Part shown: piece after piece, positions 3,825 through 55,589 of the stretch
Layout: each line of letters starts with the position of its first letter
Numbering within the stretch: position 1 is the first letter of the stretch
From: Candidatus Kaiserbacteria bacterium
Lineage (GTDB): Bacteria; Patescibacteriota; Minisyncoccia; Phycocordibacterales; UBA2100
Assembly (NCBI GenBank): GCA_016186695.1
Contig: JACPLC010000009.1
Coordinates: 1 to 56,249, forward strand
Direction: 5' to 3'
Length of the DNA stretch: 56,249 bases
Position numbers and translations under genes: made by a program
Notes under the pieces: generated by a model
What the model saw: only the letters and a program-made list of their open reading frames with translations
The model's database searches: none
Told to the model about the DNA's origin: nothing

Positions 3825-4244
3825 ATGAATAAAGTAGTTATTGGAGTCGTTGTGATTATCATTATCGCTATCGGAGCATGGTACGTCTTGGGTGCTCAAA
3901 AGGCAGAAGCGCCGACGACGAGCGGCTACGCGTGGCAATTTACCGAGCTTCCGGAAAGTGCTACAGCTCCCGACATGCCAAGAACGGGTGTCGTGTTGGA
4001 GGCCGCGGGTAAAACGTACGTTGTAGGAGAATTCGACGGTTCGTGTTTCGTGATCGAGGAATCCGAATGGGAACTCGTGGAGGGTGAGAAATCGGGCGTC
4101 ATCTGCTGGTGGGCAGGCGGTGGCAGCGAAGTCGGCATCTTCGAAGAAAGTGGAAAGATAGCCGTCAAGGTAGGGCAGCTCGACGAAGGCACCGCCGAAG
4201 GCGGCGGCATCCGCGGCAACTTCCAGCTTCTTTTTGAAATTTGA
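3825..4244 (+). CDS. Hypothetical membrane-anchored protein
   Basis: N-terminal TM helix (VVIGVVVIIIIAIGAWYVL) followed by an acidic soluble domain. No family recognised. Confidence 0.5.
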   Translation: MNKVVIGVVVIIIIAIGAWYVLGAQKAEAPTTSGYAWQFTELPESATAPDMPRTGVVLEAAGKTYVVGEFDGSCFVIEESEWELVEGEKSGVICWWAGGGSEVGIFEESGKIAVKVGQLDEGTAEGGGIRGNFQLLFEI

Positions 4245-4309
4245 CACCTGCCTGCCGCAGGCAGGCTTTGACAAAGTATCTCAAAACCGGTACTCTTTTG
4301 GCTTACTAT

Positions 4310-5710
4310 ATGGCCAAAAAAGGCTTTAAAGTTGTCAAGTTCGGCGGTACCTCGATGGGCTCCAAGGAAGCGATCGAACGGGTGATCTCCATTGTCAGCA
4401 AGCCGCAAAAGCCCGCCCGACCGAACGGTCGTTCGGGCGGGGATGCGCGCATTGTCGCTGTTGTCGTTTCCGCGATGAGCGGTGTTACCGATCAGCTGAT
4501 CAAGATTGCCAGCGTTGCATCGCATAAGGATCCATCGTACAAAAAACTGCTCACAAGGCTCGAGCGGCGTCACCTTGAGACGCTGAACAAGCTCGTAAAC
4601 GCAAAAAATCGCGCGCACTCCCAAGAAGTCATTCACCGGACGTTCCGCTACCTCAATGAAGCGGTGACGGGTGTTGCACTCATGCGTGATCTTTCACCAC
4701 AAACGTTTGATTACGTCGTGAGCTATGGTGAACGTCTTTCTGCACATCTGCTCACAGAAGTGTTGAACGACAGGGGCATTGCATGTGAATATTTGAACGC
4801 ACGCAAAGTGATAACGACGGACGATCATTTCGGCGCGGCGTTTGTGGATTTCAAAACGACGAATGTAAATATCAAAAAGTATTTTCGCGCTCACAGGAAA
4901 CTCCAAATCGTGACGGGCTACATCGGTGCAACGCGCGACAAGAAAACGACGACGCTTGGACGCGGCGGGAGCGATTACAGCGCGGCAATTTTTGGTGCTG
5001 CGCTCGGAGCGAAGGCCATAGAAATTTGGACGGATGTTTCGGGCGTGTATACCGCCGATCCGCGGTTGGTGAAAGGTGCCAAGGTCGTACCGGAGCTTGC
5101 GTTCGAAGAAGCGGGGGAGCTCGCCTACTTTGGCGCGAAGGTCTTGCATCCAAAAACCATTTTGCCGGCGATGCGCGAGAAGATCCCCGTGCGCGTGTTG
5201 AATACGTTCAGACCTTCCGACAAGGGGACAACGATCGTCGCGGGCTTCGCCGAGCGCCGAAGCCGTAGCCACACGGTGGAGGCGCTTACGTTCAAGCGTC
5301 CTGTAATCGTTATCCACCTGCATTCTCCCGAATTTTTCGACTCGAACGGCTTGATGGCAGGGATATTTGAAGTATTCGACCGCTATCGCACGAGCATCGA
5401 CATCGTGGCGACGTCTGTCGCGGGCGTTTCTCTCACCATCGACGACGACAAGCATCTTCTCGAGATCGTGCGGGGTCTCAAAAAGTATGGAGATGTCAGC
5501 GTCGAGTGGAGGAAAGCTATTGTGTGTGCCGTGGGAGGAAGTGTGAATGCCGCGGGTGTCGCGGGCAAAATGTTCACGGTGCTCGGGAAGCGCGGGATTC
5601 CTGTCGAGCTTATTTCGCAAGCTGCCTCAGGCGTCTCGATCACATTTGTCGTTCGCGAACGCGACGCCGAAAAGGCGCTCAAAGTTCTGCACCGCGAGTA
5701 CATACGGTGA
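4310..5710 (+). CDS. lysC: Aspartate kinase
   Basis: VVKFGGTSMGS signature, amino-acid-kinase fold motifs and C-terminal ACT-like region. Promoter TTGACA (4268-4273)-17-TACTCT upstream. Confidence 0.9.
   Translation: MAKKGFKVVKFGGTSMGSKEAIERVISIVSKPQKPARPNGRSGGDARIVAVVVSAMSGVTDQLIKIASVASHKDPSYKKLLTRLERRHLETLNKLVNAKNRAHSQEVIHRTFRYLNEAVTGVALMRDLSPQTFDYVVSYGERLSAHLLTEVLNDRGIACEYLNARKVITTDDHFGAAFVDFKTTNVNIKKYFRAHRKLQIVTGYIGATRDKKTTTLGRGGSDYSAAIFGAALGAKAIEIWTDVSGVYTADPRLVKGAKVVPELAFEEAGELAYFGAKVLHPKTILPAMREKIPVRVLNTFRPSDKGTTIVAGFAERRSRSHTVEALTFKRPVIVIHLHSPEFFDSNGLMAGIFEVFDRYRTSIDIVATSVAGVSLTIDDDKHLLEIVRGLKKYGDVSVEWRKAIVCAVGGSVNAAGVAGKMFTVLGKRGIPVELISQAASGVSITFVVRERDAEKALKVLHREYIR
4412..4442. repeat. 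Family-A hairpin repeat inserted in frame in lysC
   Basis: cccgcccgaccgaacggtcgttcgggcgggg encodes ...PARPNGRSGG... at a position where aspartokinases run straight into the VVVSAM motif. Confidence 0.75.
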
Positions 5711-39587: not shown

Positions 39588-39689
39588 TGCTCGCAAAAAG
39601 TGAAAGAGGCTGCACGTCGCGGCCTCTTGTTGTTTATGATAAACTTACCGCACCTACCCCCTGTCGCAAATCAGGGGCTAGTTTGCGTT

Positions 39690-42461: not shown

Positions 42462-45400
42462 GCGCGGTACTCAGACCAGGACTTTGCTTTTAATCCGTTT
42501 CCTTTTTGCTCATGCAGCGCGGTCACGAATGCTTCGGCGAGCTGGCGATTCGTGATGAGGGGAATGTTCATGTCGATTGCTTTGCGGCGGATGATGAAAC
42601 CGTCGGTATTTTCGCGCTCATAGGCGCGCGTGGGAATATTTATAATGAGATCGATCGCGCCTTGCTCCATGAGCGAGAGGACGTTTGGTTCCTGTCCGGT
42701 ACTGATTTTGAATACCTTTTCGCAGGGAACGCCGTTGGCGGCAAGGAAATCGGCCGTATGCTCAGTCGCGAAGAGTTTGAATTTCATATTCACGAGCATT
42801 TGCATTGCCGGCAAAAGCTTTAATTTGTTTTCCTCTTTTCCGAGGGAGACGAGGACGTTTCGCTTGGGCAGCCTGAAACCGGCTGCGAGCATGGATTTGA
42901 GAAGCGCCTCGCCGTAAGAATCACCGAAGCAAGCGACCTCACCCGTCGAGGCCATCTCGACGAACGAGCGCGGATCGGCGCCCTTGATGCGGCCGTATGA
43001 AAACTGTGGCGATTTTACGGCGACGTAGTCGAGTTCGAGCGTGCGGTACCGTTCTTTCGTTCCTTCGCCGAGCATCGCGCGCGTCGCGATATCAATGAAG
43101 TTGTGGCCGGTTACTTTTGAAACGAAGGGGAACGAGCGCGAGGCGCGTACGTTGCACTCGATAACCTGCAGGCGATTGTCTTTCGCAATGAATTGCACGT
43201 TGAAGGGGCCCGTTATCTTGAGCTCGCGGACGATCGCTTTCGTTACGTCTTTTACGCGGCGAATCGTCTCGAGGTACGTGCGCTGTGGCGGCAAGACGAC
43301 GGTCGCGTCGCCGGAGTGTGTACCCGCGTTTTCGACGTGTTCTGTAATTGCGTAGATGAGCAGCGAGCCGCGCGCGGCGACGCCGTCTATCTCTATCTCA
43401 CGCGCATTTTCGATGAATTTTGAGATGACGACGGGGTGATCGGGTGAAACGTCTGCCGCGCGCTTGAGATATTTCAGCAGCGACTCGCGGTTTAAAGCAA
43501 CGCTCATCGCGGCGCCCGATAGTACGTATGAGGGTCGCACGAGCACGGGGTAGCCAAATTTTTCAGCAGCTTTGACGGCCGCGCTCGGGCTCGTGAGCTC
43601 TGCCCATGCCGGCTGGTCGACGTCGAGCGTGTCGAGGAGTTTCGAGAACGCATGGCGATTTTCGGCGCGATCAATATTGCGCGGGTCGGTGCCAAAAACA
43701 TGAACGCCCGCTTTTTGAAGGGGAAGTGCGAGGTTGTTCGGTATCTGGCCACCGGTCGAGACGACGACACCTTTCGGCTTTTCAAACTCCACGATATCCA
43801 AGACACGCTCCAGCGAAAGCTCCTCGAAGTACAGCCGGTCCGACATATCGTAATCGGTCGAGACGGTCTCGGGATTCGAATTTATCATGATGGTCTCATA
43901 CCCTTTTTCGCCGAGCGTGCGGAGCGCCTGCACGCCCGACCAGTCGAATTCTACCGACGAGCCGATCGCATACGGGCCGCTGCCAAGCACGATTGCCTGA
44001 TTTTTCCCATGCTCGATATCGTGTTCTGCTCCGTGGTAGGTGAGGTAGAGGTAGTTTGTCTTTGCCGGAAATTCGCCCGCCAAGGTATCTATCTGTTTGA
44101 TGGAAGGCAGTACGCCGAGCTTCTTGCGAAGCGCACGTACCTTTGCCTCGTTTGTCTTTTTAAGTGCGGCGATATCGCGATCGGAAAAACCTTTTTGTTT
44201 GGCTTCGCGCATGAGCGCCGGCGTGAGTTTGCCGCGGCGCAATTTTGCTTCGAGCTCAACGATATTTTTTATCTTCTCGAGAAACCACACATCAATGTGC
44301 GAAAGCTGGTGGATTTTCCCGACCGATACGCCTTTTCGCAGTGCCCCAAAGATCGCGTGGATGCGATTCGTGGTCGGGTGCCGTATATCCTCCAAAAGTG
44401 CGCCGACCGGCCGTGCAAGATAAGCTTTGTCCAAAGGGACGTTCAGCATGCGGAGCGCTTTCTGCAAGACCTCCTCAAAACTCCGGCCGATTGCCATGAC
44501 CTCACCGACACTCTTCATCTCGCTTCCGATCTTTGATGTCGCGTTATCGAATTTCGTAATGTCCCAGCGTGGAACTTTGAGGACGAGATAATCGAGCGCG
44601 GGTTCGAAGCACGCGGTGGTCTGTTTTGTCACTGAATTTTTCAGCTCTGGGAGTGTATACCCAAGCGCGAGCTTCGCTGCGACATGTGCGAGCGGATAAC
44701 CGGTCGCCTTGGAGGCAAGCGCCGAGGAGCGCGAGAGGCGTGCGTTCACCTCTATAACGCGGTAGTCGCCTGTTTTGGGGTGGAGTGCGTACTGAATGTT
44801 GCACTCGCCGACGATGCCAAGATGCCTAATGACTCGTATCGCGATCCCCCGCAAGGCATGGTACTCCTGATTGTTTAGCGTCTGCGAAGGAGCAACCACG
44901 AATGATTCACCGGTGTGAATGCCCATCGGATCGATGTTCTCCATGTTGCACACCGTGATGCAGTTGTCGGCGCGGTCGCGCACTACTTCGTATTCGATTT
45001 CTTTCCAGCCGCCGACGTATTCCTCGATGAGAACCTGCGGCGTCGAGCGGAACACTTCTTTGAGCTTTTCGGAGAGCATTTTTGCGTCCCGCACAACACC
45101 CGATCCTTCGCCCCCCAAGGCAAATCCTGCACGCATCATGAGAGGGTAGCCGATTTCCTCAGCCGCTTTCAGCGCAGCGGAAATAGTTGATGCGGCGCGG
45201 CTCTTCGGTGTTGATACATTGATTTCGTTCAGTCGCCGTACAAAGAGATCGCGGTCTTCCGTGTCGCGGATTGCCGCAACAGGCGTACCGAGCACGCGTA
45301 CCCCGTACTTTTTTAGCGTGCCGCTCTTTTCGAGCGCGAGACCGAGGTTGAGCGCGGTCTGGCCGCCGAAGCCGAGGAGGATGCCATCAGGCCGCTCTTT

Positions 45401-45697
45401 TTTGATGACCTGCACGGCGAACTGTTCGGTAAGAGGCAGGAAGTAGACGGTGTCAGCGAGTTTCTCACCCTCCTTCGCCCCGTCCTTCGCATGAAGCTTC
45501 GGAGGGCGCGGCAAGGCTCCGAAGGGCAGGTCCGTCTGAATCGTCGCAATGTTGGGATTGATGAGAACCACCTTCACGCCCTCCTCTTTGAGGGCTTTGA
45601 TAGCCTGCGAGCCGGAGTAATCGAATTCGCCGGCCTGGCCTATTTTCAAGCCTCCGCTTCCAAGTATGAGAACTTTTTTTGGTTTGCGCATACTCAT
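42458..45697 (-). CDS. carB: Carbamoyl-phosphate synthase large subunit
   Basis: 1079 aa. GQAGEFDYSGSQA, two ATP-grasp halves, MGS-like C-terminus. Confidence 0.95.
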   Translation of the reverse strand: MSMRKPKKVLILGSGGLKIGQAGEFDYSGSQAIKALKEEGVKVVLINPNIATIQTDLPFGALPRPPKLHAKDGAKEGEKLADTVYFLPLTEQFAVQVIKKERPDGILLGFGGQTALNLGLALEKSGTLKKYGVRVLGTPVAAIRDTEDRDLFVRRLNEINVSTPKSRAASTISAALKAAEEIGYPLMMRAGFALGGEGSGVVRDAKMLSEKLKEVFRSTPQVLIEEYVGGWKEIEYEVVRDRADNCITVCNMENIDPMGIHTGESFVVAPSQTLNNQEYHALRGIAIRVIRHLGIVGECNIQYALHPKTGDYRVIEVNARLSRSSALASKATGYPLAHVAAKLALGYTLPELKNSVTKQTTACFEPALDYLVLKVPRWDITKFDNATSKIGSEMKSVGEVMAIGRSFEEVLQKALRMLNVPLDKAYLARPVGALLEDIRHPTTNRIHAIFGALRKGVSVGKIHQLSHIDVWFLEKIKNIVELEAKLRRGKLTPALMREAKQKGFSDRDIAALKKTNEAKVRALRKKLGVLPSIKQIDTLAGEFPAKTNYLYLTYHGAEHDIEHGKNQAIVLGSGPYAIGSSVEFDWSGVQALRTLGEKGYETIMINSNPETVSTDYDMSDRLYFEELSLERVLDIVEFEKPKGVVVSTGGQIPNNLALPLQKAGVHVFGTDPRNIDRAENRHAFSKLLDTLDVDQPAWAELTSPSAAVKAAEKFGYPVLVRPSYVLSGAAMSVALNRESLLKYLKRAADVSPDHPVVISKFIENAREIEIDGVAARGSLLIYAITEHVENAGTHSGDATVVLPPQRTYLETIRRVKDVTKAIVRELKITGPFNVQFIAKDNRLQVIECNVRASRSFPFVSKVTGHNFIDIATRAMLGEGTKERYRTLELDYVAVKSPQFSYGRIKGADPRSFVEMASTGEVACFGDSYGEALLKSMLAAGFRLPKRNVLVSLGKEENKLKLLPAMQMLVNMKFKLFATEHTADFLAANGVPCEKVFKISTGQEPNVLSLMEQGAIDLIINIPTRAYERENTDGFIIRRKAIDMNIPLITNRQLAEAFVTALHEQKGNGLKAKSWSEYRA
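45468..45530. repeat. Family-B repeat inserted in frame in carB (antisense orientation relative to the gene)
   Basis: ccctccttcgccccgtccttcgcatgaagcttcggagggcgcggcaaggctccgaagggcagg. The gene-sense translation LPFGALPRPPKLHAKDGAKEGEK interrupts the conserved ...IATIQTD / LADTVYF. Confidence 0.75.
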
Positions 45698-46827
45698 TTC
45701 TTAAGGCTCGCGATGAATTCGTCGAAAATCCACGCCGTATCAGTGGGGCCCGGAGATGCCTCGGGGTGAAATTGCACCGAGCGCCATGGCTTCGTTTTGT
45801 GGAGCATGCCCTCATTGCTGTCGTCGTTAGCATTTACAAACCACTCCTCCCAGCCCGCGGGCAGTGATTTCCCGTCTACCGCGTATCCGTGGTTTTGCGA
45901 GGTGATGTAACACCTGCCCTTCGTAGCTTTACTGTGTCCGTCCGAAGCCTTGCGCGAAGGAGGAGCGAAGGAGGGGCGGCCTATGAGGTCGATACAAGGT
46001 TGATTTTGCGAACGATGCCCGTACTTCAGCTTGTATGTCTTTGCACCTGCGGCGAGGGCAAGAAGCTGATTGCCGAGGCACACGCCGAGGATGGGCTTGT
46101 TCTCTTTCATCGCAGCGCGGATGTGCTCAATCGTTTTTTCGGCCATGATCGGATCGCCGGGACCGTTCGAAATGAGAAGGCCGTGGTATCTTTCTTTTGA
46201 GAAGTCGTAATCCCACGGTACGCGGATGACGGTCGCGCCGCGCGTGAGCAAGGAGCGCACAATGTTTTCTTTCATCCCGCAGTCGACTGCAATGATCTTG
46301 ATGCGGCCCTTGCCGTATATTTTTTTCTTTTTTATGCTGACGCGCGCGACGAGATTCTCCTGATTCGGATCTTTAAATATGGACACGCCGTGTCCATATT
46401 TTGTACTAGAAAGATACCCGAGTATCACACCGTGCTCGCGCAGTCGTTTCGTGAGCGCGCGGGTGTCTACACCACTCATCGCGGGAACACCTGATTTTTT
46501 CAGCCAATCGGCAAGTGAGCGCTTGGCGGTTGCATGCGAGTATTTTTCGGAATATTCGGATACGACGAGGCCCGCAATTTGAATTTTCCGCGACTCGAAA
46601 GGAGAGGCGTCGGGCTTGCCCTCCGAAGCCTTGGCGAAGGAGGGAACGCCGTAGTTGCCGATGAGGGGATAGGTACACACTAGTATTTGTCCGGCATACG
46701 ATGGATCCGTAAAAGCTTCGGGGTAACCAACCATGCCGGTCGCGAAGACAACCTCGCCGGCGACCGAGCGGTTTGCACCAAAACTCTTGCCCTCGATAGT
46801 CGTACCGTCTTTTAACAACAATTTCAT
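45694..46827 (-). CDS. carA: Carbamoyl-phosphate synthase small subunit (glutaminase)
   Basis: LLKDGTTIEGKSFG, TDPSYAGQI, GVCLGNQ (catalytic Cys), QFHPE. 4-nt overlap with carB. Confidence 0.92.
   Translation of the reverse strand: MKLLLKDGTTIEGKSFGANRSVAGEVVFATGMVGYPEAFTDPSYAGQILVCTYPLIGNYGVPSFAKASEGKPDASPFESRKIQIAGLVVSEYSEKYSHATAKRSLADWLKKSGVPAMSGVDTRALTKRLREHGVILGYLSSTKYGHGVSIFKDPNQENLVARVSIKKKKIYGKGRIKIIAVDCGMKENIVRSLLTRGATVIRVPWDYDFSKERYHGLLISNGPGDPIMAEKTIEHIRAAMKENKPILGVCLGNQLLALAAGAKTYKLKYGHRSQNQPCIDLIGRPSFAPPSRKASDGHSKATKGRCYITSQNHGYAVDGKSLPAGWEEWFVNANDDSNEGMLHKTKPWRSVQFHPEASPGPTDTAWIFDEFIASLKK
45913..45975. repeat. Family-B repeat inserted in frame in carA (copy 1)
   Basis: The gene-sense translation RPSFAPPSRKASDGHSKATKG interrupts the conserved GHRSQNQP..D...G / YITSQNHGYAV. 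Confidence 0.75.
46596..46645. repeat. Family-B repeat (short variant) inserted in frame in carA (copy 2)
   Basis: The gene-sense sequence ccctccttcgccaaggcttcggagggcaag... encodes PSFAKASEGKPDASP, inserted after the conserved IGNYGV. Confidence 0.7.
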
Positions 46828-46836
46828 ATGCAAATA

Positions 46837-46857
46837 TATGGATGTGCGACATCCATA
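46837..46857. promoter_or_regulatory. 21-bp palindrome immediately upstream of carA (candidate operator or 5' hairpin)
   Basis: tatggatgt-gcg-acatccata, 10-30 nt upstream of the carA ATG (46827). Confidence 0.4.
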
Positions 46858-46870
46858 ATATTCGGGTTAG

Positions 46871-46893
46871 AAAAAAGCCCGCTTTCGGCGGGC
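46871..46893 (-). terminator. Rho-independent terminator (minus strand)
   Basis: On the minus strand, gcccgc-cgaaa-gcgggc is followed by tttttt. Confidence 0.65.
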
Positions 46894-46982
46894 GTGAGCC
46901 TGGAGTAGAAAAATACACCCTCGCGGGTGTCCTTGTGTATCAACCTCTTGGAGTCCATTAAAGCCCAAGCTTATCTGTATGC

Positions 46983-47354
46983 TTACAAAAAGTCAAGGCC
47001 GAAAAAAGCCCCGGGAAGTGTCCGGGGCTTCGCAGTGCACTTACCGATCATCGTGCGGAAAATCGGATTGTAGAACAGAATACGACTACATTCGAATCGC
47101 GTACGGAAAAGGGCATCTCCGAGATTTACGGAGTCTTTTTCCATAAAGAACCGATCTCCTTTACAATCCAGCATGATGCCGACACGACCTCTGCCGTCGA
47201 AGGACAACACAAGACCATTGGATTCGCACTCGATTAGAGTCTCGTTCGCGATTGCCTGTTTCCAGTCGGCGAAAATCAAGATTGTAGCAACCGCAATACC
47301 CATAGCGACGACACCGATGACAAGGATGTGTTTAAGTCGCATGACCGTCTCCAC
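46983..47354 (-). CDS. Hypothetical membrane-anchored protein
   Basis: N-terminal TM helix (ILVIGVVAMGIAVATILIF). The start is GTG 47354 or ATG 47342 (GGAGA Shine-Dalgarno). No family recognised. Confidence 0.4.
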   Translation of the reverse strand: METVMRLKHILVIGVVAMGIAVATILIFADWKQAIANETLIECESNGLVLSFDGRGRVGIMLDCKGDRFFMEKDSVNLGDALFRTRFECSRILFYNPIFRTMIGKCTAKPRTLPGAFFGLDFL

Positions 47355-47462
47355 ATACGAGTGTTCAGGATTTCATTCCAGACATACTGTGCGGCTCTTT
47401 GACATTGGCGTCAACTATTGAGATATGAACAACAACTTTGCGTCTTGTGTATACTCTCCGTC

Positions 47463-48785
47463 ATGATTCGAAGAGAACTTAAAAAATACAGGTTGCCGGA
47501 TGGGCCGGGAGTATACCTCTTCAAAAAAGGGCGGAAAATCCTGTATATAGGCAAGGCAGCATCTCTCCGTGACAGAGTGCGAAGCTACTTTTCTGCGGAT
47601 CTCGTGAATGGTCGAGGACAGGCCATTGTTGGTATGGTAGATGATGCCACGTCTGTTTCCTACCAAAAAACGGATTCTGTCTTGGAAGCACTTCTCCTCG
47701 AAGCGAGTCTTATAAAGCGTCATCAACCTCCTTTCAATATCGAGCAGAAAGACAACAAAAGCTGGAACTACGTTGTCATCACGAAGGAACCCGCCCGACC
47801 GGACGACTCCGGTCGTTCGGGCGGGGCTTTTCCGCGGGTTCTCATTGTTCGCGGTCGCGAACTGTATCAGGGGTGGGACAAGGCTGATATCAAACACCTC
47901 TTCGGACCGTTCCCGCACGGCGGGCAGTTGCGTGATGCAATGAAAATGGTCCGCCGGATATTTCCATTTCGCGACAGATGCACACCATGCGACGGGCAAC
48001 TTCGTCGAACAACACCACATTCTAATTCGCGCGAATTAGAATATAAGGATGGGAAAGTTCGGGAATGCAAACCGTGTTTTAATCGGCAGATTGGTTTGTG
48101 TCCCGGCGTGTGCTCGGGCGAAATGACAAAAGAAAAATACGCACAGACGATTCGCAGCATCCGCGAGCTCTTCTCAGGTAATTTCAAAGGCTTGAAGCGC
48201 CGGCTTGCGCGCGAAATGAAGGAGGCTGTAAAGCGCGAGGACTTTGAGGAGGCGGAGAAACTGCGCAGGCAGATCTCTGCGCTTGAACACGTGCGCGATG
48301 TCTCGCTCATTAAGAATGAAAAGCTTGTTTCTGCCGGTGGTGGAACGCGCATCGAAGCGTTTGACATCGCACACACTGCAGGGAAGGAGACTGTCGGCGT
48401 GATGACCGTCCTCGACAACGGCGAGCCATACAAAGCAGCGTACAGAAAGTTCAACGTCCGAACGGCAACGAACGATGATATTGCCGCACTGAAAGAAGTT
48501 TTGTCGCGCCGCCTGAATCATTCCGAGTGGCCTCTGCCGCGTGTTTTCGTTGTCGACGGCGGCAAGGCGCAACTGCGGGCCGCGGGCATTGTGCTGAAAA
48601 GCGCGGGCGTTATGATTCCTGTTGTCGGTGTCGTGAAAGACGAATTTCACCGTCCGGAACGGGTGATAGGCGATGAACGCATGATTCAGGCGCACGAACG
48701 CGATATTTTACTTGCCAACAATGAAGCCCACCGGTTTGCCATCGGATTTCACCGCGCACGCCAGCGAAAAAGTTTTGGACGGTGA
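47463..48785 (+). CDS. uvrC: Excinuclease ABC subunit C, short form lacking the C-terminal (HhH)2 domain
   Basis: GIY-YIG domain (GPGVYLFKKGRKILYIGKA...LLEASLIKRHQPPFN), UVR domain (FEEAEKLRRQISALEHV), nuclease domain ending ...NEAHRFAIGFHRARQRK. Confidence 0.88.
   Translation: MIRRELKKYRLPDGPGVYLFKKGRKILYIGKAASLRDRVRSYFSADLVNGRGQAIVGMVDDATSVSYQKTDSVLEALLLEASLIKRHQPPFNIEQKDNKSWNYVVITKEPARPDDSGRSGGAFPRVLIVRGRELYQGWDKADIKHLFGPFPHGGQLRDAMKMVRRIFPFRDRCTPCDGQLRRTTPHSNSRELEYKDGKVRECKPCFNRQIGLCPGVCSGEMTKEKYAQTIRSIRELFSGNFKGLKRRLAREMKEAVKREDFEEAEKLRRQISALEHVRDVSLIKNEKLVSAGGGTRIEAFDIAHTAGKETVGVMTVLDNGEPYKAAYRKFNVRTATNDDIAALKEVLSRRLNHSEWPLPRVFVVDGGKAQLRAAGIVLKSAGVMIPVVGVVKDEFHRPERVIGDERMIQAHERDILLANNEAHRFAIGFHRARQRKSFGR
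47790..47825. repeat. Family-A hairpin repeat inserted in frame in uvrC
   Basis: cccgcccgaccggacgactccggtcgttcgggcggg is identical to 51900-51935. It encodes PARPDDSGRSGG between the conserved ITKE and FPRV. Confidence 0.85.
48019..48042. repeat. 24-bp perfect palindrome inserted in frame in uvrC
   Basis: attctaattcgc|gcgaattagaat encodes HSNSRELE. Its 20-mer core recurs at 17888-17907. Confidence 0.8.
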
Positions 48786-48837
48786 TATACCCCATGAGAT
48801 GGCGGCGAATGCCTATCTCACGGGGTATACTAGCGGC

Positions 48838-49809
48838 ATGGCGCGGACGATTGTCGGAGTGCTGCGGGGAGGCACGTCGAGCGAATATCCGCTTTCGCTG
48901 AAGACGGGAGCGGCTGTGATGGCCGCGCTGCCGCAGGAACAGTACGAAACGCGGGATATTTTGATTGACAAAGGCGGCACATGGCATTTACGCGGTATGC
49001 CTTCGACTCCTGTGCACGCGCTCATGCAGGTGGATGTCATCCTGAACGCGCTCCACGGTGGCATAGGGGAGGACGGGACGGTACAGCGGATTTTGGATCG
49101 TGTCGGCATTCCATATGCAGGTTCGCGCGCACTTCCTGCCGGTATTTCACTCAATAAAATCCGCGCGCGTGAGGCGCTCACGGCCGCAAAGATCCCGATG
49201 CCGCGCGCCGTTGCGTTCAGTTTGCACAATCGCATGGATACACGCGAGATGGCAGACGCCGTCTTTGCCCACTTTGGCCCTCCCTACATGGTGAAGCCGC
49301 CTGCGGAAGGTTCTTCGCGCGGCATCCGCTACGTCGCCACCATAGCAGCGCTTCCCGAAGCGATCGGAGACATACTCGATGAGTTTGGCGCGGCGCTTAT
49401 CGAGGAGTATCTGCTCGGCGAGCACGCGACGATCGGTGTCATCGAAAACTTTCGCAACGAACCGCTCTACGCGCTCACTCCTGCACACATCGATCTGCCT
49501 GAAGGCGCATGGTATTACGATCCGCACGCGGAAGGCGAGCGTGCGCGGCACCTCGTCCCGAGCCGCTTTTCGCGCGAGCTAAAGGAAGCAATCGCGGACG
49601 TTGCACGAAAAGCACACCGCGTACTTTCGCTTGCGCATTTTTCTGATGCCGATTTCGTTGTCACGCGGCGCGGCCCGTATCTTCTTGAAATGAACGCGAA
49701 CCCCCACCTCTACGAAGATGCCGCGTTCCCGCACATGCTTGAAGCCGTCGGTTCGTCACTGCGTGAATTCCTCGAACACTCGATATTGCTTGCGCGGAAG
49801 GGGATTTAG
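48838..49809 (+). CDS. ddl: D-alanine--D-alanine ligase
   Basis: IVGVLRGGTSSEYPLSLKTG, LHGGIGEDGTVQ..L...GIPY.GS, ATP-grasp region, EMNANP. Confidence 0.85.
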   Translation: MARTIVGVLRGGTSSEYPLSLKTGAAVMAALPQEQYETRDILIDKGGTWHLRGMPSTPVHALMQVDVILNALHGGIGEDGTVQRILDRVGIPYAGSRALPAGISLNKIRAREALTAAKIPMPRAVAFSLHNRMDTREMADAVFAHFGPPYMVKPPAEGSSRGIRYVATIAALPEAIGDILDEFGAALIEEYLLGEHATIGVIENFRNEPLYALTPAHIDLPEGAWYYDPHAEGERARHLVPSRFSRELKEAIADVARKAHRVLSLAHFSDADFVVTRRGPYLLEMNANPHLYEDAAFPHMLEAVGSSLREFLEHSILLARKGI

Positions 49810-50382: not shown

Positions 50383-51285
50383 CTATATACCGCGTCGTGC
50401 AAGACGCTCTCCCTCTGCGAGCGTGGAAAGTTCAATGCCGCGCATCGGCTCGCCTAAACCCTCGCTCACTTTTGCAAGGATGTCGGGATTATCGAAATGG
50501 GTTGTCGCCTCGACGATTGCTTTCGCACGCTTGCGGGGATTTGCCGATTTGAAGATGCCAGAGCCGACGAAGATGCCTTCGACGCCCAACTGCATCATGA
50601 GTGCCGCGTCGGCGGGTGTTGCGATGCCTCCCGCAGAAAAATTAACGACCGGGAGTTTTCCGCTCTTTGCGGCGCGCGCGATGAGCTCCGTGGGAACTCG
50701 GTATTCTTTTGCTTTTGCGCGTAATTGCTTCGCACTCATCTTTTTGAGCGCGGCCAATTGAGAGTAAACGGCGCGCGCTTGTCGAACGGCCTCGACGACG
50801 TTGCCCGTACCCGCTTCGCCTTTTGTGCGAAGCATCGCCGCGCCTTCGTTCACGCGTCGCAGGGCTTCTCCGAGATCGCGGCAGCCGCACACGAAGGGGA
50901 CATTGAATGCTCGTTTGTCGATATGGTGTTCTTCGTCGGCAGGGGTCAGCACTTCGCTCTCGTCGATGTAATCAACGCCGAGTGATTCCAAGATCTGCGC
51001 CTCGACGAAATGCCCGATGCGCACCTTTGCCATGACAGGGATAGTGACGGCTTTCATGATGCTTTTGATGAGTTTCGGATCGCTCATGCGCGCAACGCCG
51101 CCTTCTTTGCGGATGTCGGCAGGCACACGCTCGAGTGCCATCACCGCGACCGCTCCCGCATCCTCGGCGATCTTTGCGTGCTCGGCCGTTACGACGTCCA
51201 TGATGACACCGCCTTTGAGCATCTGTGCAAGACCAGATTTCACCCCGAACGTATTCATTTTCGTCATCGAAGATTTCTTTACCAT
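50383..51285 (-). CDS. pdxS: Pyridoxal 5'-phosphate synthase lyase subunit
   Basis: [49 protein letters not shown]. The start is uncertain between 51285 and 51267. Confidence 0.9.
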
Positions 51286-51344
51286 ATCTTTGGATGGCTC
51301 ACTATACCTTGTGACGAACTCACGCTCAACCACACGACTTCAGC

Positions 51345-51372
51345 CTTGACCAATAGTATGATATATCATACT
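51345..51372 (+). promoter_or_regulatory. Promoter TTGACC-16-CATACT overlapping an 18-bp perfect palindrome (operator candidate)
   Basis: TTGACC at 51345-51350. The palindrome AGTATGATATATCATACT at 51355-51372 contains the -10-like CATACT. Confidence 0.5.
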
Positions 51373-51379
51373 CATACGT

Positions 51380-51811
51380 ATGAAAGTTAAGGCACGTGAA
51401 CTGACGAAAGAGGATCGCATCTTGGTTCTTGATGCTCTCTATACCGCCGCTGCCACTGTGAAAGGACGAGCCGCTATGAAATTGTTCTTACGGGACCTTC
51501 TGACTGAAAGCGAACGAATAATGCTCGGAAGGAGGATTTTAATCGCGCGGAGACTTATTGCGGGTGAGACTTTTGAGGATATCAACGATGTGCTACATGT
51601 GGGACGCGATACGGTATGGAAGGTGCAGCGCTGGTTGCAGGATCAATTTCCAGGATACGAAAAGGCTATTAAGGATATGGAGGTCGTGTTTGCCGAGCGG
51701 AAGAGGAAATTCGACGACAAACGTCTCTACGCGACAAGTGCCCTATATCGGTTGAAAAAGAAATATCCACTACATTTTCTGCTGTTTCCGTGGCCGAAGA
51801 TCAAAGATTGA
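51380..51811 (+). CDS. TrpR-related (YerC/YecD-like) HTH protein
   Basis: LFLRDLLTESERIMLGRRILIARRLIAGETFEDINDVLHVGRDTVWKVQRWL. Confidence 0.6.
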   Translation: MKVKARELTKEDRILVLDALYTAAATVKGRAAMKLFLRDLLTESERIMLGRRILIARRLIAGETFEDINDVLHVGRDTVWKVQRWLQDQFPGYEKAIKDMEVVFAERKRKFDDKRLYATSALYRLKKKYPLHFLLFPWPKIKD

Positions 51812-51812
51812 C

Positions 51813-51830
51813 AGTATGATATATCATACT
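51813..51830. promoter_or_regulatory. Second copy of the 18-bp palindrome AGTATGATATATCATACT
   Basis: Identical to 51355-51372. It begins 2 nt after the stop codon of the TrpR-like gene. Confidence 0.55.
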
Positions 51831-51879
51831 GGTTGGCGAAATGTTGCCCTTTGCTCGGAACTTGGTACATTTTGAGCGC

Positions 51880-51955
51880 GGGCCAGTAGTTCAGTGGTAC
51901 CCGCCCGACCGGACGACTCCGGTCGTTCGGGCGGGGAGCGTCTCATTTGCAATGT
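51880..51955 (+). pseudogene. 5'-half relic of a tRNA-Ala(UGC)-like gene, D-loop disrupted by a family-A repeat
   Basis: GGGCCAGTAGTTCAGTGGTA[36-nt repeat]GAGCGTCTCATTTGCAATGT aligns with positions 1-41 of the intact tRNA-Ala downstream. No T-arm or 3' acceptor follows. Confidence 0.7.
51900..51935. repeat. Family-A hairpin repeat inside the tRNA relic
   Basis: 36/36 identical to 47790-47825. Confidence 0.85.
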
Positions 51956-52198
51956 ATGCGATACGTTGTCTATGTTCTGAGAGACTCAGCTGGCCATCTG
52001 TATAAAGGGATGACGCGAGATTTACCAAATCGCTTGAAAGAGCATCGGAAGGGTACAACGCGAACTACTTCTCGAATGAAGGATCTGTCTGTTGCGTATA
52101 CCGAAGAGTTTGATACGTTTGATGCTGCAAGAAAACGAGAGCTTTACTTCAAATCAGCTGCGGGGAGACGTTTTCTTGCAAAGAAGCTGGGCCCTTAG
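51956..52198 (+). CDS. Stand-alone GIY-YIG nuclease-domain protein (80 aa)
   Basis: YVVYVLRDSAGHLYKGMTRDLPNRLKEHRKG...AARKRELYFKS. The stop overlaps nt 8-10 of the tRNA-Ala. Confidence 0.75.
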   Translation: MRYVVYVLRDSAGHLYKGMTRDLPNRLKEHRKGTTRTTSRMKDLSVAYTEEFDTFDAARKRELYFKSAAGRRFLAKKLGP

Positions 52199-52261
52199 CT
52201 TAGTTGGTAGAGCGCCACATTTGCAATGTGGAGGTCACCGGTTCGAATCCGGTAGGGTCCA
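52189..52261 (+). tRNA. tRNA-Ala (anticodon UGC)
   Basis: Hand-folded cloverleaf: acceptor GGGCCCT/AGGGTCC with G3:U70, D-arm GCTT/GAGC, anticodon arm CCACA-TTTGCAA-TGTGG, variable loop AGGTC, T-arm ACCGG-TTCGAAT-CCGGT, discriminator A. No encoded CCA. Confidence 0.9.
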
Positions 52262-52282
52262 CAAAACTGGTATCATGGTGGT

Positions 52283-52903
52283 ATGGTCAATCCGTTAGAC
52301 GCAAGGCTCAAATGGGCGATCATTTTCGGGTTTTGTTACTTAATGTCGGTGGTTATCATGGCAACGACATTGCGGGCAATAGGCACCCTCGTGCCCGCGA
52401 ACACTGTTGAATACTATTTCAACTTTTTCCTCTTCGCGCTCGGATTATTGCCTTTTTTCGCGACCTTAATTCTGACTATTCGCGGATACATATACCTGTC
52501 CGAAAAATATGGCAAGGCCGCGCTTAAAGTAGGGGCGTGGATATTTTCAGTTTCGGCGGGAATGCTGTATGTACTCATCTTGCTGGATTCATTCGAAATG
52601 GGAACACGTGCTGATACCCGGTTTGCCGATACACTCATAGGGCTTGTCATGACGTTCTACGTTATCGGATTGATCGTTATGGGAATTGGCAGTTACTGGC
52701 TCAAGAGCAGGCTTGGTAATGTCGTTTTCGGAACCACTGGCCTCGGTCTGCTCATACTACTGGAAATCCTAGTCGTGACGCCTCTTTTCATCGCGGGGAA
52801 TGATGCACCTGCCTTTGCGACTTGGTACGTATGGTACCCCGTCTACGAGTCGCTGTTTGTCATTGCTAGCATGGCTCTCTTTTATCGAGCGATGCGCGAT
52901 TGA
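52283..52903 (+). CDS. Hypothetical multi-pass membrane protein
   Basis: About 6 TM helices. TGGTATCAT lies 6 nt upstream of the ATG. No family recognised. Confidence 0.5.
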   Translation: MVNPLDARLKWAIIFGFCYLMSVVIMATTLRAIGTLVPANTVEYYFNFFLFALGLLPFFATLILTIRGYIYLSEKYGKAALKVGAWIFSVSAGMLYVLILLDSFEMGTRADTRFADTLIGLVMTFYVIGLIVMGIGSYWLKSRLGNVVFGTTGLGLLILLEILVVTPLFIAGNDAPAFATWYVWYPVYESLFVIASMALFYRAMRD

Positions 52904-52955
52904 TTTCCACTTCGTGTCATTGCTAGAGAGCTGAGAACGCGCGATTATTTAGGTA

Positions 52956-55589
52956 ATGAATGAACCTCGGAGCAGAGGGAAGCTTTCTGCTATAGCCGGA
53001 ATTCTTTTCGTGCTCTCACTTGCGGGCGTGATACTCGAAGTTCGCATGGTCACCACGCAACTTGGCAGCGAGCCGGTGTTAACAGAAGCTGATTCGACCG
53101 CCGAACTTGCCTCTGTTGTCCTTGCCGACACAACCGCAGCCCCTGCGAAAGCTGCGAAACCAACCGAGTATGAGTGTGATCCCGGACAAGTCCAAATGGT
53201 TTATCAAGAAAAGAAAGACTCCGAATCCAAGGTCTTGATATTTAATTGCTACGTAAAGGATAAAACTACCAGAAAAATGGTGCCGAGTGGCACCAAAGGG
53301 AAAGGCTGCGTATTCATGCCGGAAGAAAAGGCTAAGCAATGTGTCGTCGTCTTCTGTCCGCCAGCAGGAATGTTTGCGAGTAATAAGAAAGGAACATGCA
53401 TCGAAGTTAATTGCCAGGGACAGAACAGGCCGCAGTGCCTGAACAAAACAGTCGAAAGGTCGGCAACAGCGAATGGAACTGCTGCCGTCATCGCACAAAC
53501 CTTTTTTGCCGACAAAGCCAAGACAGCAGCAGTCACTCTCAATTCGGAAGGGGTAAACGGCGATGAGTTCTTAAGCAGAGTCTTAAATCCCGACGCTAGA
53601 AAAGAGGTGGAGGGTCAGATCCGTGCTCTAGAGGGAGATGAGGCTGCCATCGATAAAATAGCTAAAATTGCCGGAGAAGGGGTCGCGCCATGTGTGCTGG
53701 CGAAAGATGCCGCGTGCACACCCGCTATTCAACTTAATAAAAATCTCGTGGATGCAGCTCGACTCGACGCGTGCAAGACGAATCCCGCGGCATGCCAAGG
53801 CGGAGGTGGAGGAGGAGACGCAAGCGAGCGACCGACGATGCGAATCCCCGGCGGCGCGGGATTGCCACCACCACCTCTGCGGCCACCGCAACAGCAGCAG
53901 CAACAGCCGCCAGCGTCCTCACAATCATTCCAATGCACATCACAGCCGCAGCCTCCGACACCGTGCACAGGCGGCACGTGGCAGCCGCAACACGGAGCAG
54001 GTAACTGCATCACGGGTTGGATCTGCGCACCCACAGGCTCTCCGCCTCCGCCAGCCCCGCCGCCCGCGCCTGTCATCGCGCTTGTCGCCAATCCTTCGAC
54101 TATTTCTGCGAGCTCAACATCGCTTCTCGGCTGGGTGACGGTCGGTATGCAGTCGTGCCTGATCTCGAGTCCAGCGCAGCCTGCCTTTACCGCAGAACAT
54201 GCGAACAATACAAGCGTGAGTGGAACCGCGAGAACCCCGCCGCTCGCAACATCTACTCCTTTTGTACTGACCTGTAAGACCGCGGGCGGAGACACAAAAG
54301 CCGCGACGACGACCGTGAACGTGACTGTAGCCTCGTCGAACGTGCAGGAATCCCAGCTTGCTTCCGCGGTACTTGCCCAACTGAACCAACGAAAGGCAGG
54401 GACAGCACAAAAAGAGCAATGCAATCCCGGCCAAGTGCAGACTATACGGTCGGGAACAGCTGGCGGGAATGCGAAAGCAACTCCCAGTACGTGCTTCAGA
54501 AACGGAAAAGTCGACTCAGGAGTTGCGAGGGATCAATATTGTGGGATTGCAAAACCCGATCGCTGTGTTGTGCAGTACTGTTACCCCAAAACTTCTTCCA
54601 GAAATAGGCAGTTTGAAGTCTGTCAGGAAGCGAAATGTCAGAACCAGTCCGATGCAGAATGTTTCAGACGCGAGCTCGCGAGAGCATCTGAAGGTCCTGT
54701 GGCCATGCTGCGTGACAAAGCAGAGAACGATCCAAATGCCACGGCAATCAAATACGGAAAAAATGGTCAAGTCGATATCAGTGAGCGACTCACCCAAGCA
54801 TTGAGCAAAGAGATGGCGGAGCCACTTCGTGAGAGCGTGAAGGGGACAAGCGCATTCGATCGCATCAGCGGATTTGCGAATAATCTTGAACAAGGGAAGC
54901 CATCGTGCACGAACTGCAAGGAGACAGTTCAATTGAACAAAGACATCAACGAAGCGTTTCGGCTTGCTGGCAAGCCACCACCGAAGGGGCCCGGGACGCA
55001 GGCGGGACCGGGAACGCAGACAGGGCCGCAGTCGGATAACACAGGATTCAAATTTCCCAATATCACTAAAGAGCCGAGCGGCACCGACGTCTTGGCATGG
55101 ATGTCCAGGCTTTTCGGAGCTGACAAACCGAAGCAGCAGCCACCACCCCGCCCCGGCGGTGGAGGAACGCCCTGCATCAGCACACCGCAGCCGCCAGCTT
55201 CGCAGTGTCAGGGCGGGTCGTGGGAGTCGGCTTCCCCGGCAAGCTCTGCAGAAAGTTCAGGGGGAAACTTTTCGGGAAGCTCTTCCGGAAGCTGTACCAC
55301 CAACTGGCGCTGTGTCATCCCGCGGATTATTTCGTACAAGGCGGTTCCGGAAAGCGTTACATCCGGAGAGACCGTAAACATCGGATGGATTACCGAGGGG
55401 ATGAAATCGTGCATCATAGGAAGTCCCGATCTTCCAGCGTGGACCGAAGAAAACAAATCCTACACAAACGAGGACGGAACCGTGAAGACGCCAGCGCTCA
55501 CAGCCACAACCCGCTTCGAGCTCAAGTGCACGACGAAGGCGGGAGCGGCGTTCCCCGTCAAACTGCTTTCCGTCGGAGTCCTTCCTTGA
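52956..55589 (+). CDS. Large secreted/surface Cys-rich protein with internally duplicated architecture
   Basis: N-terminal signal anchor. Two copies of [C(D/N)PGQVQ Cys-rich module ... P/Q-rich linker ... Cys knot ... ~90-aa beta-sandwich-like domain]. Confidence 0.6.
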   Translation: MNEPRSRGKLSAIAGILFVLSLAGVILEVRMVTTQLGSEPVLTEADSTAELASVVLADTTAAPAKAAKPTEYECDPGQVQMVYQEKKDSESKVLIFNCYVKDKTTRKMVPSGTKGKGCVFMPEEKAKQCVVVFCPPAGMFASNKKGTCIEVNCQGQNRPQCLNKTVERSATANGTAAVIAQTFFADKAKTAAVTLNSEGVNGDEFLSRVLNPDARKEVEGQIRALEGDEAAIDKIAKIAGEGVAPCVLAKDAACTPAIQLNKNLVDAARLDACKTNPAACQGGGGGGDASERPTMRIPGGAGLPPPPLRPPQQQQQQPPASSQSFQCTSQPQPPTPCTGGTWQPQHGAGNCITGWICAPTGSPPPPAPPPAPVIALVANPSTISASSTSLLGWVTVGMQSCLISSPAQPAFTAEHANNTSVSGTARTPPLATSTPFVLTCKTAGGDTKAATTTVNVTVASSNVQESQLASAVLAQLNQRKAGTAQKEQCNPGQVQTIRSGTAGGNAKATPSTCFRNGKVDSGVARDQYCGIAKPDRCVVQYCYPKTSSRNRQFEVCQEAKCQNQSDAECFRRELARASEGPVAMLRDKAENDPNATAIKYGKNGQVDISERLTQALSKEMAEPLRESVKGTSAFDRISGFANNLEQGKPSCTNCKETVQLNKDINEAFRLAGKPPPKGPGTQAGPGTQTGPQSDNTGFKFPNITKEPSGTDVLAWMSRLFGADKPKQQPPPRPGGGGTPCISTPQPPASQCQGGSWESASPASSAESSGGNFSGSSSGSCTTNWRCVIPRIISYKAVPESVTSGETVNIGWITEGMKSCIIGSPDLPAWTEENKSYTNEDGTVKTPALTATTRFELKCTTKAGAAFPVKLLSVGVLP

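Follow-up and report, generated by a model that had tools for sequence, protein, structure and literature searches.

An 80-residue GIY-YIG gene between a hairpin-split tRNA relic and an intact tRNA gene in “Candidatus Kaiserbacteria”: a candidate homing-type cassette of Patescibacteria

We analyzed a 56,249-nucleotide (nt) stretch of a “Candidatus Kaiserbacteria” genome (assembly GCA_016186695.1, contig JACPLC010000009.1, forward strand, positions 1-56,249; here called the window), in which a gene for an 80-amino-acid (aa) GIY-YIG protein lies between the 5′ stump of a tRNA-Ala gene, split by a 36-nt GC-rich bulged palindrome (hairpin H), and an intact tRNA-Ala(UGC) gene. Comparison with empty sites in related lineages indicates that the stump is what is left of the resident tRNA gene and that the intact tRNA is a foreign allele that was imported together with the open reading frame (ORF). 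The layout recurs at many tRNA genes across Patescibacteria. On balance, we favor the explanation that it is a selfish cassette of the homing type, which brings a tRNA copy of its own and breaks tRNA genes in the D-arm, and several observations that fit this explanation poorly are weighed below.

Architecture of the tRNA-Ala locus

All parts of the locus lie on the plus strand. A promoter-like pair read from the sequence (TTGCCC-16 nt-TACATT, 51844-51871) is followed by relic segment A (51880-51899), which corresponds to nt 1 to 20 of the resident tRNA-Ala(UGC), i.e., to the 5′ strands of the acceptor stem and the D-stem and to the D-loop. Hairpin H (51900-51935) interrupts the tRNA sequence between nt 21 (D-loop) and nt 22 (D-stem), and relic segment B (51936-51955) continues with nt 22 to 41 (D-stem 3′ strand, anticodon stem 5′ strand, loop, and three further nt). 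The GIY-YIG ORF (51956-52198; Pfam PF01541) starts with the ATG at 51956, and its TAG stop codon at 52196-52198 coincides with nt 8 to 10 of the intact tRNA-Ala(UGC) gene (52189-52261, CCA not encoded), so the first 10 nt of the tRNA gene double as the last codons and stop of the ORF. Without the palindrome, the stump measures 40 nt (51880-51899 plus 51936-51955) and aligns with nt 1 to 41 of the window's intact tRNA at 34 of 40 positions with one gap. The 12-mer CATTTGCAATGT occurs at 51944-51955 and again at 52218-52229, a spacing of 274 nt. Every feature and coordinate named in an earlier, sequence-only reading of this DNA was found again in the window.

The intact tRNA was called by both Rfam (74 bits) and ARAGORN. 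The native stump was called by neither Rfam (E values up to 10) nor ARAGORN, as expected for half a tRNA split by an insert and thus uninformative by itself; ARAGORN called a tRNA-Ala once the insert-free stump was completed with the intact gene's 3′ part. No remnant of the 3′ half of the resident gene was found in the window. Rfam also returned a subthreshold “Plastid-ycf2” match on the minus strand (52189-52262; 30.8 bits against a cutoff of 65.7), which is a tool artifact.

Resident and imported tRNA alleles

Scanning metagenome contigs with the upstream TrpR-like protein yielded two relatives, L085 and L086, in which the TrpR-like protein is 84% identical and PdxS 80 to 84% identical to the window's proteins. 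Both contigs carry PdxS, the TrpR-like gene, and then tRNA-Ala(UGC), with neither the ORF nor H at the site. In three other TrpR-anchored relatives (L097, L099, and L102), tRNA-Ala(UGC) likewise follows downstream and the ORF is absent, and the 328 kb of TrpR-anchored relatives as a whole contain no ORF homologue and no H. The ancestral order in this lineage was TrpR-like gene, promoter, and tRNA-Ala. The upstream flank of L085 and L086 (ending in GATACATTTTAGGCGC) aligns with that of the window (ending in GGTACATTTTGAGCGC), and the unusual D-arm GTAGTTCAGTGGTA is common to the stump and the L085/L086 tRNA. With the palindrome removed, the stump matches the L085/L086 tRNA-Ala at 35 of 40 positions without a gap, a score reached by none of 20,000 random 40-mers from the window. 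The comparison shows the stump to be the resident tRNA-Ala gene, still in place behind its conserved upstream flank, in agreement with the sequence-only reading, which had recognized the segment as a tRNA-Ala relic.

The window's intact tRNA is identical at all 73 positions to the tRNA-Ala of L099, a more distant relative. From the L085/L086 allele it differs from end to end, in the T arm and also in the 3′ acceptor strand, which is unable to pair with the relic. Because the difference runs throughout and no resident 3′ half is left, we conclude that the ORF came with a complete tRNA gene; the intact tRNA is a foreign allele, imported whole. The sequence-only reading had proposed that the element brings just a replacement 5′ half and had mentioned import of the whole tRNA as a caveat. 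It is the caveat that the allele comparison upholds, and the proposal falls with it.

The two relic segments differ in affinity. Segment A matches the L085/L086 tRNA at 19 of 20 positions, compared with 15 of 20 plus a gap for the window's intact tRNA; segment B, which is probably donor derived, matches the intact tRNA at 18 of 20 positions and the resident allele at 16 of 20. Among 31 intact tRNA-Ala(UGC) genes, the D-stem strand GTTC (nt 10 to 13) is combined with GAAY in all 3 genes that have it and GCTY with GAGC in all 26, and the combination found in the stump, GTTC with GAGC, occurs in none of the 31. Since this chimera spans H, the imported DNA seems to begin at the palindrome, at D-loop/D-stem position 21|22. 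With H apparently marking the left edge of the import, a break in the D-arm is more likely than one in the anticodon loop, where the sequence-only reading had placed the insertion. That reading had also taken the 12-nt repeat as the boundary of a 274-nt unit and the 36-nt repeat as a later accident. From this comparison, the 12-mer is only the end of homology in an anticodon loop common to both alleles (relics at other loci end anywhere from nt 21 to nt 46), and the hairpin, near-universal in the architecture, seems to be the left edge of the import. In sum, the resident tRNA-Ala gene has been replaced from about nt 20 to its 3′ end by a cassette made up of H, a short piece of tRNA, the ORF, and a whole foreign tRNA gene.

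The orthologous site is thus occupied in the window and empty in L085 and L086, a comparison between related lineages (84% aa identity in the neighboring gene) and not between strains; presence/absence polymorphism of this kind is a feature of free-standing homing-endonuclease genes. The foreign tRNA allele and the chimeric relic would fit co-conversion of donor flanks. Same-species contigs from other samples, with identical neighboring proteins (L165-L169 and L174-L177), are fragmented at this point: the left-hand ones all carry the stump and H and break inside H, and four of the five right-hand ones start at nt 19 to 22 of the intact tRNA, with L168 starting deeper. No empty allele was seen among these short-read contigs, which break in H and in the tRNA. 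Elements of the H-ORF-tRNA type are likely a systematic cause of assembly breaks. One of the contigs, L176, reads through H into unrelated sequence, which points to either another identical H copy in the genome or a chimeric join.

Recurrence at tRNA genes

We compiled 80 loci from a species-genome collection, contigs L001 to L004, and the window, which together gave 83 ORFs; the loci were sampled via a peptide pattern, and the counts below are not a census. A same-strand tRNA gene lies within −40 to +123 nt of the ORF end for 78 of the 83 ORFs. Sixty-three of the 83 lack their own stop codon and run on into the tRNA, and in 45 the stop is the TAG formed by U8-A9-G10 of the tRNA. The recurrent layout is a tRNA 5′ stump split by H, then the ORF, then an intact cognate tRNA. 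The tRNA genes with this layout represent at least 11 amino acids and at least 16 anticodons; the tRNAs next to the ORFs are those for Ala (UGC, GGC), Thr (UGU, GGU), Val (UAC, GAC, CAC), Phe, Ile (GAU, UAU), Asp, Lys, Met, Arg, Ser, and His. Loci with the layout are spread across Patescibacteria, with a few in other metagenome-assembled genomes (MAGs) that carry other hairpins; distant ORF homologues (49 to 51% identical) occur in MAGs labeled Rikenellaceae and Nitrospiraceae/Thermodesulfovibrionales.

The junction between ORF and tRNA is precise. Distances between the conserved RRF codon and the first nt of the tRNA have a sharp peak at 14 nt (28 loci, six amino-acid types), and 49 of 77 equal 14 + 3n. 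Clustering of the ORFs by tRNA type is partial: the nearest-neighbor ORF sits on the same tRNA type in 38 of 76 cases, against 14.5 after shuffling, and ORFs attached to Phe and Thr tRNAs are up to 78% identical. Several genomes have two or three copies, each at a different tRNA (L015/L040, L044/L046, and L056/L058/L073), and three ORFs (L015, L055, and L074) are pseudogenes cut by early in-frame stops.

After hairpin excision, a 5′ relic of the cognate tRNA was found upstream at 60 of the 80 loci; 41 of these relics start at nt 1 or 2, and their ends are spread over nt 21 to 46. Running ARAGORN after hairpin excision in all loci gave one extra full-length tRNA only (L037), so most stumps are truly truncated. 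The sequence-only reading had assigned the ORF to a tRNA-associated element with presence/absence variation and had called for a survey of related genomes for GIY-YIG ORFs next to tRNAs and half-tRNA relics. The adjacency and relic counts, together with the empty sites, answer in its favor on both points.

Some details of the junctions and gene calls stand apart. In four tRNA-Ala-linked loci (L006, L010, L202, and L204), the start codon directly follows relic nt 33 (..CAT|ATG), and the ATGCAAT with which the L202 ORF opens is similar to the anticodon loop (TTGCAAT); relative to these loci, the window has 9 extra tRNA-derived bases before the ATG. A “tRNA-Stop(tta)” in L047 is a tRNA-Lys(UUU) that ARAGORN called one base early, and spurious second tRNAs starting inside H were called by ARAGORN in L031, L053, and L077.

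The GIY-YIG protein

The 80-aa protein consists of the catalytic domain alone, with a Pfam PF01541 match over residues 3 to 69 (45.3 bits against a cutoff of 22.6; E = 1.1e-11). Residues Y6, Y16-K17-G18, R26, H30, and E62 are invariant in 33 homologues, and the protein thereby has the GIY-YIG catalytic motif; we take the catalytic residues to correspond to Y6, Y17, G19, R27, H31, and E75 of I-TevI. More than 200 close homologues of about 80 aa were found, nearly all from Patescibacteria, the closest sharing 76 to 79% aa identity, and an exhaustive profile search (E ≤ 1e-10) gave 1,154 clusters at 50% identity. Against the closest relatives, the proportion of nonsynonymous differences (pN) is 0.19 to 0.29 and that of synonymous differences (pS) 0.58 to 0.92, values that speak for purifying selection and an old divergence. 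The ORF is under selection and probably encodes an active nuclease.

The AlphaFold2 model is confident (predicted local distance difference test score, pLDDT, 92.6). Sequence-profile searches matched UPF0213 proteins (1ywl, E = 1.8e-8; 1zg2, E = 8.1e-7), whose structures are those of BH0048 and EF2693, and the top Foldseek matches were 1zg2, Slx1 (6seh/6sei), and 1ywl, with template modeling (TM) scores of 0.67 to 0.72 and 27 to 32% identity for Slx1. Phage homing endonucleases were absent from the sequence-profile and fold matches of the 80-aa protein, and no family match to it was found in NCBIfam or PHROGs. Many database representatives (P0121-P0270) are 100 to 118 aa long, with the domain beginning at residue 20 to 38 after 20 to 35 extra N-terminal residues; these long versions are probably an annotation artifact, the called genes having been extended upstream across hairpin and stump.

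The hairpin

Hairpin H is one sequence family across the phylum. It has outer arms CCCGCCC/GGGCGGG and a 4-nt bulge, GAAC or GTTC (GTTC in the window copy), and an inner stem that varies with compensation (GACTGA/TCAGTC, GTACCG/CGGTAC, and GACCGGA/TCCGGTC). Over 14 different 36-mers, 98.9% of the pairing of the bulged fold is kept, two pairs being compensatory, and an alternative fold is worse; the window copy folds as DNA at −16.4 kcal/mol (z = −4.1). Copies stand in 42 cases in one orientation and in 29 in the other, so the insertion is a DNA-level event.

Where H sits is far from arbitrary. At least one hairpin lies upstream of the ORF at 66 of the 80 loci, and 71 have one on either side. 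In ORF loci, 57 of 92 H copies are at 21|22 (GGTA|GAGC, between the last D-loop base and G22), about 14 are at 9|10 (TA|GCTC), about 6 are at 13|14, and a few are in the anticodon or T arm; almost no H was seen outside tRNA-like sequence in these loci. The hairpins next to the distant homologues have other sequences, with similar CCYGCC/GGCRGG arms and the same D-loop site.

The window itself holds three H copies in frame in protein-coding genes: at 4412-4441 in an ORF at 4241-5710, at 41941-41974 in a UvrA-like gene (39600-42461), and at 47790-47825, a second exact copy of the stump's palindrome, in a UvrC-like gene (47418-48785). These copies are read as ..PARP..GRSGG-type peptides. The UvrA insertion is present at the same site in the syntenic contig L204 (2705-2741), and this orthology marks it as old and tolerated. 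Counts of H outside tRNA stumps are 3 in the window, 1 in L204, and 0 each in L200 and L202, against 0 in the 328 kb of ORF-free relatives, and these data are thin. On viral contigs, 22 matches to the hairpin pattern were found, mostly expected by chance in GC-rich DNA; about 5 look genuine, none of them near a tRNA or the ORF.

Variant architectures

Several loci depart from the common order. In L031, L077, L005, and L042, the ORF is followed by an intact tRNA and then by a tRNA without nt 1 to 7 or 9 that carries H at 21|22; in L053, an intact tRNA precedes the ORF and an H-split tRNA follows it; and in L019, the ORF is followed by a full tRNA with two H copies and then an intact tRNA. Tandem (stump-hairpin-ORF)n arrays ending in a tRNA occur in L081 and L037. 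In two contigs from Rikenellaceae-labeled MAGs, L081 (1440-2283) and L080, the unit repeated in tandem before an intact tRNA-Arg(ACG) comprises tRNA-Arg nt 1 to 22, the 20-nt perfect palindrome CCTGCCTGCCGGCAGGCAGG, nt 23 to 33, and the ORF; the array is partly masked with N.

In L070 (about 1400-2000), a resident tRNA-Thr is split, its 5′ piece lying upstream of the ORF and its 3′ piece downstream of an intact tRNA of a foreign allele. The acceptor strand of the upstream stump, GCCGCCT, pairs with the 3′ end of the downstream H-split fragment. Both pieces carry the same H, and the upstream piece has a second palindrome nested inside it. Because the same H is found in both, H was present in the resident gene before the ORF and tRNA were inserted. 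We read this locus as an H-bearing resident gene that was split by ORF plus tRNA, with nt ~15 to 38 duplicated. Taken together, the variant architectures point to break-induced rearrangement.

Promoter and transcription

The TTGCCC-16-TACATT pair ends 8 nt before relic nt 1, and the same hexamers at the same spacing precede the tRNA at the L085/L086 empty sites, where they read TTGCCG-16-TACATT; we think that it is probably the resident tRNA promoter. A consensus scan found no plus-strand promoter-like site in 51300-52500, and the TTGCCC/TACATT pair, at 8 of 12 consensus positions, falls below its threshold. Given that the hexamers are kept at the empty sites and that the scan gave no such site within the ORF, a single transcript probably spans stump, ORF, and tRNA.

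Proposed mechanism and alternatives

The homing-type cassette that we favor would have three parts, H, the 80-aa GIY-YIG gene, and a complete tRNA gene, and would probably depend on the resident promoter. The nuclease would break the DNA of tRNA genes within the conserved D-arm, at those TA|G boundaries where H sits (9|10 and 21|22). In repair from an occupied allele, the 5′ stump would provide the homology on the left and the intact tRNA that on the right, so that H, the ORF, and the whole donor tRNA would be copied in, as in intronless homing with co-conversion. H would render the stump uncuttable and nonfunctional and would interrupt a direct repeat that could delete the ORF. The ORF and the sole working tRNA copy would then be transcribed from the old tRNA promoter, so that any silencing or loss of the ORF would cost the host its tRNA. 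By cleaving at tRNA +1, RNase P would remove the stop codon from the mRNA, which may hold the nuclease level low. The tandem arrays and split resident genes (L081, L037, and L070) are the duplication products expected from nuclease-induced breaks.

A number of observations weigh against this mechanism. The intact tRNA adjoining the ORF keeps the proposed target, and self-immunity is not accounted for. Simple homing cannot switch tRNA species, yet the ORF abuts the +1 position of a dozen species with the same 14-nt tail. The role and constancy of the hairpin and the way in which an 80-aa domain finds its target are left unexplained; the separate DNA-binding module of homing endonucleases is not present, the domain at residues 3 to 69 being the only one, and the nearest relatives, UPF0213 and Slx1, are not homing enzymes. 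Relatives of the ORF were not found on viral contigs (IMG/VR). Synonymous sites are saturated even against the closest homologues. Recent spread is not seen, and vertical descent from long ago could account for much of the pattern. Only a single occupied/empty pair was found, and its downstream flanks are not syntenic with the window; a search with the downstream membrane protein returned only relatives of 52 to 53% identity, none with a tRNA upstream. Finally, H also sits in frame in protein genes, which suggests a life of its own.

A bolder and less probable possibility takes up several of these points. The 80-aa Slx1-like nuclease and the bulged palindrome may be a two-part mobile system that recognizes tRNA-gene DNA by its structure and not by its sequence. 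The palindrome would wreck the resident copy and leave the cell dependent on the nuclease-linked tRNA, a form of addiction or gene drive that would constitute a new class of mobile element. Breakpoints fall at the helix boundaries of the cloverleaf (-1|+1, 9|10, 13|14, 21|22, and ~38|39), and this and the Slx1-like protein both fit a structure-specific enzyme and a partnership of nuclease and hairpin akin to that of repetitive extragenic palindromic (REP) elements and their REP-associated tyrosine transposases (RAYTs). The target of such a system might be extruded cloverleaf DNA or a tRNA:DNA R-loop.

We judge it rather unlikely that the hairpin alone is the mobile DNA, with the GIY-YIG protein serving as a trans-acting, structure-specific nuclease in a system analogous to REP/RAYT. 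The nuclease gene would then merely live beside tRNA genes, the ORF-tRNA cassette being a home base and not a homing unit, and tRNA stumps would gather H through a preference of H or the enzyme for D-arm helix boundaries. Much of what is known of H fits: a conserved outer stem and bulge with a covarying inner stem is expected of a protein-recognized hairpin, H occurs in both orientations and in nested or multiple copies, and there are dispersed in-frame copies in UvrA, in UvrC, and in another window ORF, one of them orthologous in L204. The hairpins of distant homologues in other phyla differ in sequence and keep the CCYGCC/GGCRGG arms and the D-loop site, the protein is closest to Slx1, a branched-DNA nuclease, and the window has 4 H copies where 328 kb of ORF-free relatives have none. 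By itself, however, mobility of H leaves the import of a foreign tRNA allele and the truncation of the resident gene unexplained, ORF-bearing contigs have few H copies outside tRNA stumps (1 in L204, none in L200 or L202), and we know of no GIY-YIG enzyme that mobilizes palindromes. A true REP/RAYT system was rejected, as the adjacent enzyme is GIY-YIG and not an HUH Y1 transposase; the resemblance is functional only.

The sequence-only reading had a simpler model, in which an ORF-only element in the anticodon loop duplicates or brings only nt 1 to 41 and the hairpin is a later chance event. Taken literally, that model now appears improbable. It would suit the relics that end in the anticodon stem-loop, as in the window and several relatives (at nt 37 to 41 in L016, L018, L023, L033, and L051), and the many loci where the relic is 100% identical to the 5′ part of the cognate tRNA, like a target duplication; duplication in situ would also explain the precise junction at tRNA +1 across tRNA species. 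Against it, relic ends range over nt 21 to 46, an upstream hairpin at fixed positions in 66 of 80 loci is too frequent for chance, and in L070 the presence of H in both halves of the split gene shows that H preceded the insertion. At the window locus, the empty-site comparison contradicts the literal model, because relic and intact tRNA are different alleles and the intact 3′ half is not the resident one.

A host function without mobility, in which a housekeeping or repair nuclease is cotranscribed with tRNAs and the stumps are decayed tRNA duplications, is very unlikely in our view. Strong purifying selection and deep divergence agree with it, as do membership in the UPF0213 family, whose members are single chromosomal genes in many bacteria, and the recurrent synteny UvrC-Ddl-ORF-tRNA-Ala (L002 and L204). 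These points are countered by the absence of the ORF from the same locus in close relatives and from the 328 kb of related contigs, by several copies per genome at different tRNAs, by pseudogenes and tandem arrays, and by the destruction of the resident tRNA gene.

Hardly credible is a remnant of an integrase-mediated island with the tRNA-Ala anticodon loop as attachment site and the 12-mer as att core: many integrases do target tRNA anticodon loops and leave direct repeats, and a 12-nt direct repeat is present, but the unit is only 274 nt long, with no island genes and no integrase among the ORFs of 50500-53500, the repeat is merely shared tRNA sequence, and the duplicated 5′ half is the wrong one, since integrative elements restore the 3′ part of the tRNA and not the 5′ part. 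A group I intron in the tRNA was rejected as well; Rfam (E values up to 10) shows only the tRNA and the subthreshold artifact, and the downstream tRNA is complete.

Neighboring genes

The gene order UvrA, CarB/CarA, UvrC, Ddl, and tRNA-Ala locus (window 39600-49809) is common to L204 (541-9866) and in part to L002. In L204 and L002 the cassette directly follows Ddl, and in the window PdxT, PdxS, and the TrpR-like gene lie between. An exact 18-nt palindrome, AGTATGATATATCATACT, occurs at 51355-51372 and 51813-51830, on both sides of the TrpR-like gene (0 expected by chance), and L085, L086, L097, L099, and L102 retain variants of it downstream of their orthologous gene. This palindrome is probably the operator of the TrpR-like repressor, placed between the repressor gene and the tRNA-Ala promoter.

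Implications

If the cassette explanation holds, Patescibacteria, or the candidate phyla radiation (CPR), would harbor a widespread and overlooked kind of selfish element, in which an essential gene is kept working by a spare copy beside the wrecked old one and not by splicing. Its nuclease would be among the smallest candidate target-specific nucleases, with a specificity that may rest on DNA structure or on the partner hairpin. Pseudo-tRNA stumps, duplicated tRNAs, tandem arrays, and assembly breaks at CPR tRNA genes would find a common explanation, and the in-frame palindromes in UvrA and UvrC would tie in-frame protein inserts of CPR bacteria to a candidate enzyme. For annotation, it matters that ORFs without their own stop codon overlap tRNAs and that many database gene calls are too long at the N terminus.

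Comparison with known systems

The best precedent appears to be SegB of phages T4 and T6, a GIY-YIG nuclease encoded in a tRNA gene cluster that cuts tRNA-gene DNA and causes preferential inheritance of the region (PMC2330249; PMC13096335). SegB also drives tandem amplification of tRNA-segB segments, and 28 C-terminal residues are lost in the amplified copies (PMC2330249; PMC13096335). The systems share a nuclease gene that lies among or next to tRNA genes and is not intronic, coinheritance of the tRNA allele, and tandem duplication of tRNA plus nuclease, as in L081. They differ in that SegB is a phage protein with a C-terminal part beyond the catalytic domain, whereas the gene described here lies on Patescibacteria chromosomes and encodes the 80-aa catalytic domain only. 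The ORF here also overlaps the tRNA and borrows its stop codon, and a hairpin-split 5′ stump of the resident tRNA is its constant companion.

By sequence and fold, the protein is most like the UPF0213/YhbQ-type proteins (1ywl and 1zg2) and the Slx1 nuclease domain, its best matches, which are likewise small and have no separate DNA-binding domain. To our knowledge, neither UPF0213/YhbQ-type nor Slx1 proteins have been reported as tRNA linked or multicopy, and a literature search found no such report for either. Slx1 further differs in needing Slx4 and in having a RING domain.

Hairpin H, a short GC-rich palindrome whose foot is conserved and whose inner stem varies and covaries, invites comparison with REP/RAYT systems and with Rickettsia palindromic elements (RPEs). 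H adjoins a nuclease gene and is dispersed elsewhere, and in-frame copies in proteins are tolerated, as RPEs are. Unlike in REP/RAYT, the enzyme is GIY-YIG and not HUH/Y1, and H strongly prefers tRNA D-arm boundaries. Group I introns and homing endonucleases in tRNA anticodon loops resemble the cassette in that a mobile element uses a tRNA gene and a functional tRNA is kept; here there is no ribozyme, and function is kept by a second complete gene copy instead of by splicing.

The rRNA genes of CPR bacteria, too, have GIY-YIG ORFs, in non-intron insertion sequences that lie at the top or base of stem-loops (PMC11270868). Phylum, nuclease superfamily, and a location in structured RNA genes are common to both; tRNA is mentioned nowhere in that report (PMC11270868). 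In a full-text literature search, neither small GIY-YIG genes fused to a tRNA nor tRNA stumps split by a hairpin were found described, and the layout has apparently not been described before, the nearest reports being those on SegB and the CPR rRNA insertions. Although it is without their defining DNA-binding module, we would provisionally file the cassette with the free-standing homing-endonuclease elements.

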